Positions 6,275-14,993 of a stretch of DNA of 23,016 nt are shown one piece after another. A program made the position numbers and the translations under genes. Position 1 is the first letter of the stretch, and every line of letters starts with the position of its first letter. The notes beneath the pieces were generated by a model. It worked only from the letters and a program-made list of their open reading frames with translations, searched no databases and was not told the DNA's origin. The stretch lies in the IMG/VR virus record IMGVR_UViG_3300033066_002317; one strand, 5' to 3'. This DNA comes from a virus.

Positions 6275-6286
6275 GTGTGGTATAAC
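6275..6286 (+). promoter_or_regulatory. recurrent phage promoter-like motif, copy upstream of HNH (GTGTGGTATAAC)
   Basis: Intergenic, 10 nt before ATG 6297. Shares GTGTGGT with the copies at 14088 and 14973. Confidence 0.4.
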
Positions 6287-6296
6287 GGTGGAACAA

Positions 6297-7043
6297 ATGT
6301 CGTACGAGGGCGACGAGCGTCGCGATCTGAAACTTCCTGGTGCTTACGTGAGGTTGTGGGAACTCGTTGCCGACCGCGATACGATCCTTGACTACCTCGA
6401 GCACGCGCAGGCAGGGCGCTTCTTTGGCCGCGCTGGGCAGTTGTATCATGTTAACGCGCTGAAGAAGCGCGTTCAGGTGCTGATGCGTGACAGAGCGATC
6501 TGCGTTTCCTGTGGCGTCGAGGGTCGAGTGCTTGCTGTTGAACTTCAGAGGACACACGCCTACACCAAGACGGGAAAGAGAATTCCTGCTGTGGACAGCG
6601 ATGGCACGTTCTTGCACAACGGTGAGCGCGTCCGCCGCACACACTTCAACATCTACGCGATCGTCGGGGGAAGGGAAGTGATGCTCACAGTCGATCACAT
6701 CACACCTAAATCTCTGGGTGGCAGCAGTGATGCTGGGAATCTCGTGTGCATGTGCCAGCCATGTAACGTGAAGAAGTCAAACATCGTAGTCGCAGTCGAA
6801 GAAAAATCGGAGGAACGCGTGAGCGATTTCATTACTGACCTTCTCGGTACGCAGTGCAACCTCGGGAGCCAAGTGCACGTCATCCGTGGTATGAGGACAG
6901 TCGATGGCAAGCTCACTGCGCTCATCGAGGACGTGTGTGACGGGTCGCTCACCGAGGTCGAGATCACGAAGCTGAAGATGCAACAGCGCGACGATTTCCC
7001 GAGGCTCCGCGAGGCTCCGGGGAGGATCGGGTCGGAGTCGTGA
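6297..7043 (+). CDS. HNH endonuclease
   Basis: C-terminal VDHITPKSLGGSSDAGNLVCMCQPCNVKKSN is the H-N-H ββα-Me/zinc motif. ATG at 6297, with an alternative GTG at 6288. Preceded by the GTGTGGTATAAC promoter-like motif. Confidence 0.85.
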   Translation: MSYEGDERRDLKLPGAYVRLWELVADRDTILDYLEHAQAGRFFGRAGQLYHVNALKKRVQVLMRDRAICVSCGVEGRVLAVELQRTHAYTKTGKRIPAVDSDGTFLHNGERVRRTHFNIYAIVGGREVMLTVDHITPKSLGGSSDAGNLVCMCQPCNVKKSNIVVAVEEKSEERVSDFITDLLGTQCNLGSQVHVIRGMRTVDGKLTALIEDVCDGSLTEVEITKLKMQQRDDFPRLREAPGRIGSES

Positions 7044-7252
7044 CACCCGCAGACTGCGAGTTCTATGCCCGCGCGGGCTCGTCACTTCCGATCCTGTTCA
7101 TCGTCGTATTCGCCATCGTGTTCGCGTTTGCTGCTATCAAGGCGAAGTGCTCTGTTGTGCTCGCGCTCGGGATTGCGGCGGTAATGTCATCGGGTTCGTG
7201 TGCGATCTGGGCTGAGGCACTCATCGAGAGGACGGAGGCGTGTGAGCCATGA
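7040..7252 (+). CDS. small hydrophobic membrane protein (70 aa)
   Basis: LPILFIVVFAIVFAFAAI and VVLALGIAAVMSSG. The GTG start overlaps the HNH stop (GTGA). Its stop overlaps the next ATG (ATGA). Confidence 0.5.
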   Translation: MTPADCEFYARAGSSLPILFIVVFAIVFAFAAIKAKCSVVLALGIAAVMSSGSCAIWAEALIERTEACEP

Positions 7253-7710
7253 ACATCACTTGGTGCAGTCGAGCGCGAGTAGAGAGCAAAGAGTTCGTCG
7301 ACGACCTCATCGGGAGGACAGCGATCATCTCTATCTCTACCCCTCGTGAGCCGCCCGCCGCGATCGCGATGTACGATCCAATTGTGGCGCTCCTCAGGCT
7401 GTCATTCGCAGACACGTCGGGGGACTTCCCCGAGAGCATCCAGGAATATCAGGCTGACGCGATTGCACACTTCTACTACGGTATGCGCGACACCGTGACG
7501 CAGTTCGTGATCCACTGCGACGCGGGACACAGCAGGTCTCCGGGCGTGGCAGCCGCGCTCTCTGTCATCGAGGAGGGCAGCGGCGCTGACAGTCGTATCT
7601 TCCAGCTCGCGTACCCGAACACGTATGTGAGGAAGCTCGTGATGAAATCGTGCGTCGTCATCGGGCGCAAGCTCTACGGAGACGAGAAGAACCTTGGAGA
7701 GTTTCGATGA
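7249..7710 (+). CDS. Cys-based phosphatase (PTP/dual-specificity fold, CX5R P-loop)
   Basis: VIHCDAGHSRSPG is the HCxxGxxRS catalytic loop of tyrosine/dual-specificity and RNA phosphatases (established for that fold). Confidence 0.7.
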   Translation: MNITWCSRARVESKEFVDDLIGRTAIISISTPREPPAAIAMYDPIVALLRLSFADTSGDFPESIQEYQADAIAHFYYGMRDTVTQFVIHCDAGHSRSPGVAAALSVIEEGSGADSRIFQLAYPNTYVRKLVMKSCVVIGRKLYGDEKNLGEFR

Positions 7711-7835
7711 GAGACTGGCGATGGTACCTCGGCGCGCTTCTCGTCTCGATCCCACTTGGGTTCGCTTGTGCGGTGATCAGTGACGCGATCGTCGACTCGT
7801 GTCTCGCGGTGTTCGAAAGTGAGTGCAGTCCATGA
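7707..7835 (+). CDS. small single-TM protein (42 aa)
   Basis: MRDWRWYLGALLVSIPLGFACAVISDAIV… ATG 7707 overlaps the upstream stop (ATGA). The stop overlaps the CCA-enzyme ATG (ATGA). Confidence 0.45.
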   Translation: MRDWRWYLGALLVSIPLGFACAVISDAIVDSCLAVFESECSP

Positions 7836-14087: not shown

Positions 14088-14110
14088 CACGTGTGGTGTA
14101 AATTTCGCAC
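14088..14110 (+). promoter_or_regulatory. promoter-like motif CACGTGTGGTGTAAATTTCGCAC abutting ATG 14111 (possible leaderless transcript)
   Basis: Near-identical to the 9125 copy (GGTGTAAATTTC). Shares CGTGTGGT with the 14973 copy. Confidence 0.4.
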
Positions 14111-14542
14111 ATGAAGAAGACTTGGACAAAGAAGCAGTCGAGCGAGTTTGCGGAGCACCTCGAGAGCCGGGGGATGACGATCGTATCGAAGGAATCGCTC
14201 GACAAGACGAACGCTTTCGTGTCTGCGATCATGAGCGGCCTCAACGTCGCTGACCCGGCGAACGCTGGTCGAAAGATCGCGGCTGTGTGGGGCGATCACC
14301 TCGAGCTGCTGAACACTGCTGCGAAGGCCGTCCTCGCGCTCGGCACCGCCCAGCGACGGCACGACGAGGAACTCCTGAAGAACCCGCAGGATCCCGCACT
14401 CGTCGAGAGCACGAAGGCAGATGTCATCTTCGCTCGCACGAGGATCGAGGCGCTCGCAGATCACCTCTCTGATAAGGATCGCGTCGCGTCCGATGCAGTG
14501 AAGAAGTTCGCAATTCCCGACAGCGAAAACAAGAACGACTGA
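14111..14542 (+). CDS. hypothetical all-helical protein (143 aa)
   Basis: ATG directly abuts the GTGGTGTAAATTTCGCAC motif. Very GC3-rich, AAG/GAG/CTC-dominated codon use, like the MVP and vWA genes. Confidence 0.6.
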   Translation: MKKTWTKKQSSEFAEHLESRGMTIVSKESLDKTNAFVSAIMSGLNVADPANAGRKIAAVWGDHLELLNTAAKAVLALGTAQRRHDEELLKNPQDPALVESTKADVIFARTRIEALADHLSDKDRVASDAVKKFAIPDSENKND

Positions 14543-14577
14543 AAGTCGACGTCGATTGACGGCATATTTATGCTGTC

Positions 14578-14952
14578 ATGAAAAAGATCGCCGACATGAT
14601 GCGCTCTGAGCTCATAGCTGAGGTAGCACGCCTGCGCGCACATGTCGGCGCACTCGAGGACAAGCTGAGGTCGCAGGTTGAGGAGTGTGAGCTCCTGAGA
14701 TCTCAGAACGATTACCTGCAAGAACTCCTTGAAGAGGACAAGAGCAACCACGCGAGGACGCTTCCTGTCCCGTCTGACGGACCGACAACGCGCCCGTCCT
14801 CGCCCAGGGCAATTCACCTCGACGAGCTTGCTGCTGCGCTTGAGGCGTCAGAGACAGCGCGCAAAGAGCGCGCGAGCGAGGCATGCCCGCTGTGTGGGAA
14901 GACTGAGATCCACGCTCACGAGTTTGAGTGGGACGATGAAGACGTCAACTGA
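14578..14952 (+). CDS. coiled-coil protein with a C-terminal zinc knuckle (CPLCG…HAHE)
   Basis: Heptad-like N-terminus (LIAEVARLRAHVGALEDKLRSQVEECELLRSQNDYLQELLEE), then CPLCGKTEIHAHEF. Confidence 0.55.
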   Translation: MKKIADMMRSELIAEVARLRAHVGALEDKLRSQVEECELLRSQNDYLQELLEEDKSNHARTLPVPSDGPTTRPSSPRAIHLDELAAALEASETARKERASEACPLCGKTEIHAHEFEWDDEDVN

Positions 14953-14972
14953 TACCGCGTGAATTCACACCG

Positions 14973-14993
14973 CCCGTGTGGTAATTTGTCACC
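14973..14993 (+). promoter_or_regulatory. promoter-like motif CCCGTGTGGTAATTTGTCACC upstream of the vWA gene
   Basis: 28 nt before ATG 15021, followed by the AGGAGG SD. Also preceded by the GTGAATTCAC palindrome at 14959-14968. Confidence 0.4.

Follow-up and report, generated by a model that had tools for sequence, protein, structure and literature searches.

Recurring intergenic strings of an uncultivated MVP-encoding phage lineage as likely parts of sigma-70-family-type promoters

Introduction

In the gaps between the genes of a 23-kb stretch of viral DNA (IMG/VR virus record IMGVR_UViG_3300033066_002317; hereafter the window, 23,016 nucleotides), the strings GTGTGGT and GTGTAAT recur shortly before coding sequences, which raises the question of whether they are signals and, if so, of which kind and for which machinery. 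A sequence-only reading had taken them for copies of one motif, a candidate phage-specific promoter. Here, we find that the recurring strings separate into three elements, namely a TGTG extended -10, a GTGTAA-type hexamer at the -35 position, and the string CCTATTTA, and we consider it likely, on balance, that they are parts of sigma-70-family-type promoters heading many short transcription units of an uncultivated phage lineage that encodes an MVP homolog.

Results

The strings are placed nonrandomly and fall into distinct elements

All of the strings first pointed out are present on the plus strand of the window: copy 1 (GTGTGGTATAAC, 6275-6286), copy 2 (GGTGTAAATTTC, 9124-9135, beginning at 9124 and not at 9125 as had been given), copy 3 (CACGTGTGGTGTAAATTTCGCAC, 14088-14110, adjoining ATG 14111), copy 4 (CCCGTGTGGTAATTTGTCACC, from 14973), and two weaker GTGTAAT variants (12890 and 13277). 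By count, GTGTGGT is unremarkable (4 occurrences vs. 2.8 expected); GTGTAAT is found twice for 1.2 expected, and the 12-mer GGTGTAAATTTC occurs exactly twice, with 16 matches at up to 3 mismatches for 9.3 expected. The placement is nonrandom: three of the four GTGTGGT occurrences fall within the 740 nt of intergenic DNA (3.2% of the window), each in sense orientation to the gene that follows (post hoc binomial estimate of about 1e-4), and the remaining one (16281), inside the open reading frame (ORF) 16160-16381, is mutated in the related locus L007.

The window was compared with close strains (L004/L005, about 99.8% identity; L007-L010, 92-97%) and with six distant syntenic lineages found via MVP and vWA homologs: L011 (48.6% GC, with protein identities to the window of 38-62%), L026 (a 113-kb contig, 52%), L027 (58.8%), L029 (51%), L030 (66%), and L031 (62%). 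The five-lineage tests cover the window, L011, L026, L027, and L029, and set sense-oriented intergenic DNA only against whole-locus frequencies. When 6-mers are ranked over these five syntenic loci, TATTTA, CTATTT, GTGTAA, CCTATT, GGTATA, GTGGTA, GTGTGG, and TGTGGT come out on top, with observed counts well apart from expectation (TATTTA 11 vs. 0.98; GTGTAA 11 vs. 1.55; GTGGTA 9 vs. 1.5; GTGTGG 14 vs. 3.8; TGTGGT 12 vs. 2.9). The strings first pointed out are therefore real, lineage-conserved signals. The single motif into which they had been gathered did not hold up: it merges a TGTG extended -10 with a hexamer of the -35 position. Indeed, copies 1 and 4 read TGTG-G-TAnnn, in copy 3 there is a 2-nt displacement between GTGTGG and the hexamer TAAATT, and copy 2 resembles copy 3 only through GGTGTAAATTTC. 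As for the weaker GTGTAAT variants, their sites are real, but their hexamers lie exactly 17 nt upstream of TATTTA and TATATT, and so belong to another element.

GTGTGG contains a TGTG extended -10

When the occurrences are listed with their context over the five lineages, GTGTGG stands nearly always directly 5' of TAnnnT, as in the window (TGTGG-TATAAC, listed at 6277, and TGTGG-TAATTT at 14977), in L011 (TGTGG-TAGAGT and TGTGG-TAGTGT), and in L026 (TGTGG-TAGGGT and TGTGG-TAGTGT). The register of GTGTGG-TAnnn is T-17 G-16 T-15 G-14 n-13 T-12 A-11, and TGTG at T-17 to G-14 makes up the complete extended -10 element, which domain 3 of primary-type sigmas recognises and of which sinP3 (TGTGcTATAAT) is a "perfect" example (PMC6212719). 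In 9 kb of sense intergenic DNA, TGTGnTAnnn[T/C/A] has 14 occurrences for 1.54 expected (9-fold), and TGTGnTAnnn shows a marked strand bias (11 sense vs. 1 antisense). Since TGTG-TAnnnT is a known element of primary-type sigmas (PMC6212719), no special factor is needed for it. Among the window sites, the TGTG extension is found at copies 1 and 4 and at P4995 (the promoter predicted for gene 4995), and is missing from copy 2, from copy 3, where it is out of register, and from the CCTATTTA class. The -10 pattern TAnnnT itself is seen in nine of the 14 predicted window promoters, or ten if GATAAT (nAnnnT) is counted, the exceptions being TATAAC, TATAAA, and the four TATTTA sites.

Most of the predicted promoters have a leaderless geometry

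A -10-type hexamer ends 5-7 nt before the ATG or GTG of genes 2571(-), 4995(-), 5058, 12925, 13312, 14111, 14578, 16400, 17244, and 21478(-), and about nine of the 14 predicted window promoters have this geometry. A TANNNT exactly 6 nt before the start is found for five of the 38 window genes, compared with 0.9% of all ATG/GTG triplets, and an unsupervised Gibbs run on the window gaps reached a log-likelihood of 105 (90 +/- 3.5 when shuffled) with nine sites 4-7 nt from a start codon. Over the five lineages, 23 genes have the leaderless geometry, TATTTA being counted, and they are depleted in Shine-Dalgarno sequences, which only 2 of them carry as against 44 of 101 other genes (p = 0.0015); operon-internal genes and genes with long leaders (MVP, 44 nt; vWA, 33 nt; SIR2) carry a GGAGG-type Shine-Dalgarno. 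Because the -10 is so close to the start codon and the Shine-Dalgarno mostly absent, the mRNAs of these 23 genes are probably leaderless. A leaderless mRNA had been foreseen for one copy of the motif; this is probably right and would apply more widely, to some nine genes in the window.

A GTGTAA-type hexamer occupies the -35 position

GTGTAA and its variants (GTGTAT, GTGTAC, TTGTAC, ATGTAA, GTGTCT, GTGCAA) lie 17-18 bp upstream of a -10-type hexamer, and such pairs are also found in L011, L026, and L030, for instance as GTGTAA-11-GTGTGG-TAGAGT-6-ATG (L011 8812), GTGTAG-17-(TGTGG)TAGGGT-6-ATG (L026 4541), and GTGTAA-17-TACAGT-7-ATG (L030 2209). The spacing is fixed: the window has 7 occurrences of TGTA-N17-19-TANNNT (shuffles, 1.2 +/- 1.0) and L011 has 14 (3.8 +/- 2.0), and the histogram of TGTA-to-TANNNT gaps peaks at 18-19. 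The non-syntenic MVP phages L001/L002 show an excess of this two-block pattern as well (z = 3.2 to 4.1), and loci from bacterial metagenome-assembled genomes (MAGs), used as controls, are mostly without enrichment (z = -0.6 to 2.4). An inverted-repeat operator (TGTA...TACA) was rejected as an account of the two blocks, with 2 of 14 -10 hexamers beginning TACA.

As a guard against circularity, we anchored the search solely on hexamers set by their distance to a start codon and took hexamers inside genes as controls. At these 23 anchors of leaderless geometry, TG is found at positions 2-3 of the -35 hexamer in 16 cases, compared with 157 of 1,073 controls (about 15%; p = 7e-9), and G is favoured at -16 and -14. 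The resulting consensus at the -35 position, GTGTAA/TTGTAC, shares three of six positions with TTGACA, and its upstream spacing peaks at 17-18. A generic sigma-70 scan (TTGACA/TATAAT, at least 9/12) returned matches at chance level only, because the -35 boxes are non-canonical.

The string CCTATTTA precedes three orthologous gene groups

The third element, CCTATTTA, is found at a distance of 5-11 nt from the start codon, upstream of three groups of orthologous genes (window 12925, 14578, and 16400) and of the tail-fibre-like gene 21478. CTATTTA is found four times in the window for 0.30 expected, and is entirely strand-biased (9 sense vs. 0 antisense). The copy at 21484..21490 (-) stands 5 nt before GTG 21478, with no convincing -35. 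The fourth CTATTTA (18939-18945, -) lies within the 3' part of the tail-fibre-like gene, is not followed by a start codon at the usual distance, and may be an internal promoter or a chance match.

At 14558..14577 (+), a palindrome (GACGGCATA-TT-TATGCTGTC) encloses the TATTTA at 14565-14570 and ends at ATG 14578. It folds into a hairpin (free energy -11.8 kcal/mol, z = -4.6) centred about 11 nt upstream of the start codon. Its arms differ in L011 (GACACCTAT/ATAGGTGTC), L029 (CCCATA/TATGGG), and L031 (GCGCCTAT/ATGGGCGC) yet stay complementary, which argues for base pairing over a conserved protein site; there is no palindrome in L026.

Predicted promoters along the window

Copy 1 would belong to a promoter made of GTGTCT at the -35 position (6257-6262, +), an 18-nt spacer, the TGTG extended -10, and the hexamer TATAAC (6281-6286), 10 nt from ATG 6297 of the HNH gene; its elements are identical in L007, where the sole substitution falls in the spacer. 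The HNH region itself varies between strains, as L004, which is about 99.8-99.9% identical, is wholly different upstream of window position 7177 (L004 1-345). Copy 2 (9124), which reads TCACAAATTTC in L007/L008 (92% identical) and has neither a -35-position match nor a leaderless geometry, is probably not functional, or strain-specific. About 20 nt downstream of it, a predicted promoter at 9146..9174 (+; GTGTAT-17-TATAAT, 18 nt to GTG 9193) precedes the small paralog gene 9193-9441, and its hexamers are invariant in L007/L008 around a 17-nt spacer with 3 substitutions. This gene belongs to a family of small paralogs (about 65-100 aa), marked by an xGDL(V/I) motif at the N terminus, that is found at 2896-4400 (-) and at 9193-9441, 12925-13206, 13312-13608, 13605-13826, and 13840-14079 (+), whose copy number varies between strains, 2633-4642 being missing in L007 and 13824-14077 in L007/L008/L009.

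For copy 3, the predicted promoter (14076..14104, +) pairs CTAAAC at the -35 position with TAAATT (14099-14104) over 17 nt, 6 nt from ATG 14111, and GTGTGG (14091-14096) falls inside the spacer, upstream of its place in copies 1 and 4 by 2 nt. The orthologs of 14111 have TGATAC-17-TAATTT (L011), with TACCAT (L026) or TAATGT (L029) as the second hexamer, and GTAAAC-18-TACTTT (L030). Copy 4 combines both elements at 14959..14987 (+), as GTGAAT-17-(GTGTGG)TAATTT, that is, a -35-position hexamer and a TGTG extended -10, followed by a predicted 33-nt leader with AGGAGG (15011-15016) and by ATG 15021 of the vWA gene; the local hairpin is not significant (z = -1.0). The vWA orthologs have GTGTAA-18-TATAAT (L011), GTGTCA-18-TATAAT (L026), and CTGTAA-18-TACAAT (L030).

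The MVP gene is preceded by a near-canonical candidate (10198..10226, +; TTGAAC-17-TATAAA) with a 44-nt leader carrying GAGGAG as its Shine-Dalgarno, fully kept in L007-L009 and matched in L011 by TTGTAC-17-TACAAT. After MVP comes a terminator-like hairpin (12882..12907, +; -27.5 kcal/mol, z = -5.2), with a poor U tract and GTGTAA in its apex. The same arrangement, GTGTAA in the loop of a terminator-like hairpin and a -10 directly after the 3' arm, is found independently after vWA in L030 (about 2120-2200), and terminator and promoter therefore appear to overlap at the hairpin after MVP. The first weak variant is the -35-position hexamer of this promoter (12890..12918, +; GTGTAA-17-TATTTA), 6 nt from ATG 12925 and predicted leaderless; in L011 the ortholog of 12925 has CCTATTTA 5 nt before its start, and in L029 an unannotated ATGGCATAC start follows CCTATTTA by 5 nt. 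The second weak variant (13277..13305, +; GTGTAA-17-TATATT, 6 nt to ATG 13312, likewise predicted leaderless) offers the sharpest conservation footprint of all, at gene 13312: in L007-L009 neither hexamer has changed, nor has the ATG, and 6 substitutions fall in the spacer and 5 in the 6-nt gap (GAGGAC to AGTAAT), which is therefore no Shine-Dalgarno. L007-L009 also lack the alternative ATG 13282.

Further downstream, GTG 16400 is preceded by GTGCGG-18-TATTTA (16364..16393, +) at 6 nt, which predicts a leaderless mRNA with a GTG start; within this promoter, CCTATTTAGCTCTCGTG is invariant in L007/L008 amid a diverged stretch, and CCTATTTA also stands before the L011 and L026 orthologs. The RNA ligase candidate (17208..17237, +; ATGTAA-18-TACAAT, 6 nt to ATG 17244) lies within the 3' end of the preceding ORF. 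In L007, a low-GC insertion of about 1 kb at the 5' end of the RNA ligase gene occupies 16768-17804 in place of window 17324-17493; an ORF within it begins MSKTWIIYCVKHTPTGRHYVGQT and resembles a GIY-YIG homing endonuclease. The insertion may be a mobile intron or a homing cassette. At the other end, two divergent genes share a -35-position hexamer, the palindromic TGTACA at 5024-5029, from which each -10 lies 17 nt off and each start 6 nt further on: the predicted promoter of 5058 (5023..5051, +; ATGTAC-17-AAGAAT, 6 nt to ATG 5058) differs in L007 by two substitutions, both in the spacer, and that of 4995 (5002..5030, -; GTGTAC-17-(TGTGA)TACCAT, 6 nt to ATG 4995) has TATCAT there, still a TAnnnT. 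The last one, before 2571 (2578..2606, -; TTGTAC-17-GATAAT, 6 nt to ATG 2571), is identical in L007. Overall, the hexamers are conserved against diverging spacers: between the window and L007 (92-95% identical), they differ at 3 of 156 positions, and spacers with short leaders at 26 of 372 (p = 0.012).

This distribution speaks against another part of the sequence-only reading, according to which the motif would tie MVP-associated genes into one regulon. Unrelated genes of either strand (2571-, 4995-, 5058+, 17244+) have these elements before them, as have non-orthologous genes in the relatives, and MVP itself has a TTGAAC -35 and a leader with a Shine-Dalgarno.

The window and its relatives

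The window has a GC content of 57.6% and resembles part of a large tailed-phage genome. A plus-strand block (5058-18859) codes for a metallophosphatase, an HNH endonuclease, a CCA-adding enzyme, a SIR2 protein, the MVP homolog (10271-12862), a vWA protein, a T4-type RNA ligase, and a dCMP deaminase, and is flanked by minus-strand genes, among them lectin-fold tail-fibre-like proteins. No DNA match to the window was found among the deposited phages of INPHARED, no hit in tRNA and Rfam scans of the window, no phage match for its tail protein, and only matches at 30% identity or less for its RNA ligase. In IMG/VR, the exact 40-mer around copy 3 is absent, and just three MVP phages were found, distant and non-syntenic. 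A scan of GTDB genomes returned bacterial MVP homologs in Sericytochromatia, Polyangiaceae, Planctomycetota, and others, none of them in synteny with the window, and they therefore give no clue to the host. Metagenomic MVP homologs are plentiful (6,287 matches at E <= 1e-50), some on contigs longer than 300 kb and some in bacterial MAGs (Sericytochromatia, Polyangiaceae, Planctomycetota, others), with 44-54% identity to the phage protein.

Two further features of the window deserve mention. The longest-ORF call at 2596-2892 (-) is wrong, the frame from GTG 2892 coding for MKKLVSLAIVCLCCVSGC..., a lipoprotein-type signal peptide with a lipobox. The first plus-strand gene and the minus-strand block converge on a gap that holds, at 271-347, a 17-nt inverted repeat (AGTGACACACAGGGGGG / CCTCCCTGTGTGTCACT, 43-nt loop) followed by GGTCGTAAATTAC, a near-copy of the 12-mer quoted above.

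Discussion

That the recurring strings are promoter signals, as had been proposed from the window alone, is borne out by their position and orientation relative to gene starts, and our analysis favours, with some reserve, promoters of the sigma-70-family type. RNA polymerase would start at these sites, and they would be read by the host holoenzyme with its primary sigma. On this basis, the TGTG extended -10, contacted by sigma domain 3, would make a promoter strong and less dependent on its -35, and the GTGTAA-type hexamer would take the -35 position, 17-18 bp upstream of the -10. In most units, transcription would begin at or beside the start codon and give a leaderless mRNA, and the long-leader genes (MVP, vWA, SIR2), like the operon-internal ones, would be translated via their GGAGG-type Shine-Dalgarno. 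The CCTATTTA sites would form a subclass with an A at -7 and a weaker -35, heading the three orthologous gene groups and the tail-fibre-like gene. Most plausibly, the host would come from a leaderless-rich group, for example Actinomycetota or Deinococcota; a Bacteroidota-type host (-7 TAnnTTTG, no Shine-Dalgarno) was rejected because operon-internal genes use GGAGG.

Several observations weigh against sigma-70-family promoters read by the host polymerase, or soften the case for them. The GTGTGG of copy 3 is 2 nt out of register, and the TATTTA class has an A instead of the T at -7 that primary sigmas usually need, no TG extension, and an inconsistent -35. The GTGTAA hexamer shows more sequence specificity than expected of a weak host -35, and it recurs in lineages of 49-66% GC that probably have different hosts. 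The strict TGTA two-block pattern is only weakly enriched in L026, L027, and L029 (z = 1.0 to 1.9). Every transcription start assigned here is a prediction, the gene starts of the relatives are automatic calls, and no cultured relative was found by INPHARED DNA, tail-protein, and RNA-ligase searches. Finally, numbers are small and several patterns were defined after inspection of the window and L011, so that these two loci are not independent tests.

Some of these points are what a phage-specific class, the view first taken of this locus, would explain. Under this alternative, which we regard as unlikely, a phage sigma-70-family factor would read the promoters, or the host polymerase would be retargeted to the GTGTAA box by a phage activator or appropriator, much as by MotA/AsiA at T4 middle promoters, and the CCTATTTA sites could be a separate late class. 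Consistent with it, the -35 consensus GTGTAA/TGTAC is non-canonical and common to lineages over that whole GC range, the two-block pattern extends to L001/L002 and mostly spares the bacterial MAG loci, CCTATTTA is the most enriched and most strand-biased string of all despite lacking a T at -7 and a consistent -35, and the more canonical TTGAAC of MVP hints at two promoter classes; that phages can favour extended -10 promoters while disabling -35 recognition is known from gp39 of P23-45 (PMC3950348). However, TGTG-TAnnnT, the 17-18-bp spacing, and A-11/T-7 are exactly as primary sigmas read them, natural actinobacterial sigma-A promoters include -35s such as GTGTAT (PMC3917453), and temporal classes are not apparent within the window. 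Moreover, no sigma, gp55-like, or anti-sigma domain was seen in the window proteins or among the Pfam domains listed for some 100 kb of related loci, which is weak evidence because the genomes exceed 113 kb. Along the same line, it is possible, though unlikely, that the lineage has a promoter grammar of its own, made of a GTGTAA -35 box, a TGTG extended -10, and a separate CCTATTTA 5-8 nt before starts, and helped by a phage sigma-70-family factor or sigma appropriator. If true, leaderless expression would, for most gap-preceded genes, be the phage's own strategy rather than a copied host habit, with a -35 box that sometimes sits in the loop of the preceding terminator hairpin.

Other readings leave transcription initiation aside, and we hold each of them for improbable. 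The A/T-rich hexamers might be non-Shine-Dalgarno translation signals (A/U-rich ribosome-binding or S1 sites) within longer mRNAs, since they occupy the position of a Shine-Dalgarno before genes that have none and since the 5-11 nt of CCTATTTA are loose for an exact leaderless start; this is very unlikely in our view, because neither the TG at a fixed distance (the -35-position TG of p = 7e-9) nor the TGTG extension has a translational role, the same hexamer types stand 18-44 nt upstream of Shine-Dalgarno genes (MVP, vWA, 9193), and the TAnnnT pattern, with A at position 2 and T at position 6 invariant, is that of a -10 box. Even less can be said for a role of the GTGTGG and T-rich strings at the end of the preceding genes, as the 3' arm and tail of an intrinsic terminator or of another RNA hairpin. 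A scan does flag TCACACCGCCCGTGTGG then TAATTTGT at 14965-14981, and GTGTAA 12890 does lie in the apex of the very stable hairpin after MVP, as after vWA in L030, but three GTGTGG copies fold no better than shuffles (z = -1.0, -1.5, +0.1), which led us to reject a hairpin there and leaves 12882-12907 as the only one to qualify; a G-to-A change in L008 breaks the 14965 stem, terminator-like matches in the region are at chance level (9 vs. 9.6 expected), and the strong MVP hairpin, although real, coexists with a promoter instead of replacing it. Scarcely more credible are repeated intergenic operators or "stoperator"-like sites to which a phage repressor or regulator would bind. The repeats are short, oriented, and intergenic, 14558-14577 is palindromic, and relatives encode a receiver-domain protein and a helix-turn-helix protein; against this, GTGTGG is nearly always joined to TAnnnT and GTGTAA lies 17-18 bp from one, which is polymerase-contact geometry, the sequences differ between sites when operators are usually near-identical, and the arms of the palindrome change between lineages while staying complementary.

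Promoters of the sigma-70-family type are in themselves an unsurprising finding here, extended -10 promoters and leaderless genes being well known. What they bring is a working transcription map for an uncultivated phage lineage with an MVP homolog, with 14 predicted promoters, most of them leaderless, which corrects several start codons (e.g., 13312 in place of 13282). The leaderless units, the GTG starts, and the TGTG boxes also serve as a clue to the host, pointing to a leaderless-rich group such as those named above, and the GTGTAA box and CCTATTTA are handles on whether such phages bring their own specificity factor.

It is also instructive to set these promoters beside known systems. T4 late promoters have TATAAATA at -10 and involve gp55, gp33, and the clamp. 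The motif of the window had been likened to them as a -10 element without an obvious -35, a likeness that does not stand: the TG of the -35 position is there at 16 of 23 anchors, and a scan for TATAAATA gave 3 one-mismatch matches for 1.75 expected, none of them on the sense strand upstream of a gene. A T4-late-type promoter is thus rejected both by sequence and by the presence of a -35-position element; the two are alike only in having an A/T-rich -10-region element near gene starts, and CCTATTTA(T) resembles TATAAATA only on the opposite strand. Phage P23-45 is closer, with TG-extended -10 promoters read by the host polymerase (PMC3950348), as predicted here, but its promoters are without a -35 whereas ours have a positioned upstream hexamer, and no gp39-like protein was identified in our material.

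With regard to bacteria, leaderless genes are recognisable by a TANNNT some 12 bp ahead of the start of translation and account for over 20% of the genes of Actinobacteria and Deinococcus-Thermus (PMC3160421), and in C. glutamicum 33% of mRNAs are leaderless, 21% of those beginning with GUG (PMC3890552). Here, the genome is that of a phage, the predicted leaderless share is very high (about 9 of 14 gap-preceded genes), and the -35 is GTGTAA and not ttgnca. The phage units are otherwise like those of these bacteria (PMC3160421, PMC3890552), with the first T of the hexamer 11-13 nt before ATG/GTG, no Shine-Dalgarno, GTG as a possible leaderless start, and a Shine-Dalgarno for the leadered genes of the same genome. 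The sigma-A promoters of C. glutamicum, with a weak TTGNCA -35 and an extended -10 GNTANANTNG, have natural -35 hexamers such as GTGTAT and GTGATA, and engineered up-mutations create TGTGGTA (PMC3917453); the phage sites share with them G at -14/-16, GTGTAT-like -35s, the TGTGGTA seen there as an up-mutation, and a predicted abundance of leaderless mRNAs, a resemblance only, which does not point to a corynebacterial host. As for known TGTG promoters (PMC6212719), most of the phage ones add a positioned -35-type hexamer, copy 1 has a C at -7, and recognition by the polymerase is predicted; the register of copies 1 and 4, of P4995, and of the sites in L011, L026, and L029 is nevertheless the same as in B. 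subtilis sinP3 and in the engineered M. tuberculosis sigAP-TGTG (PMC6212719).

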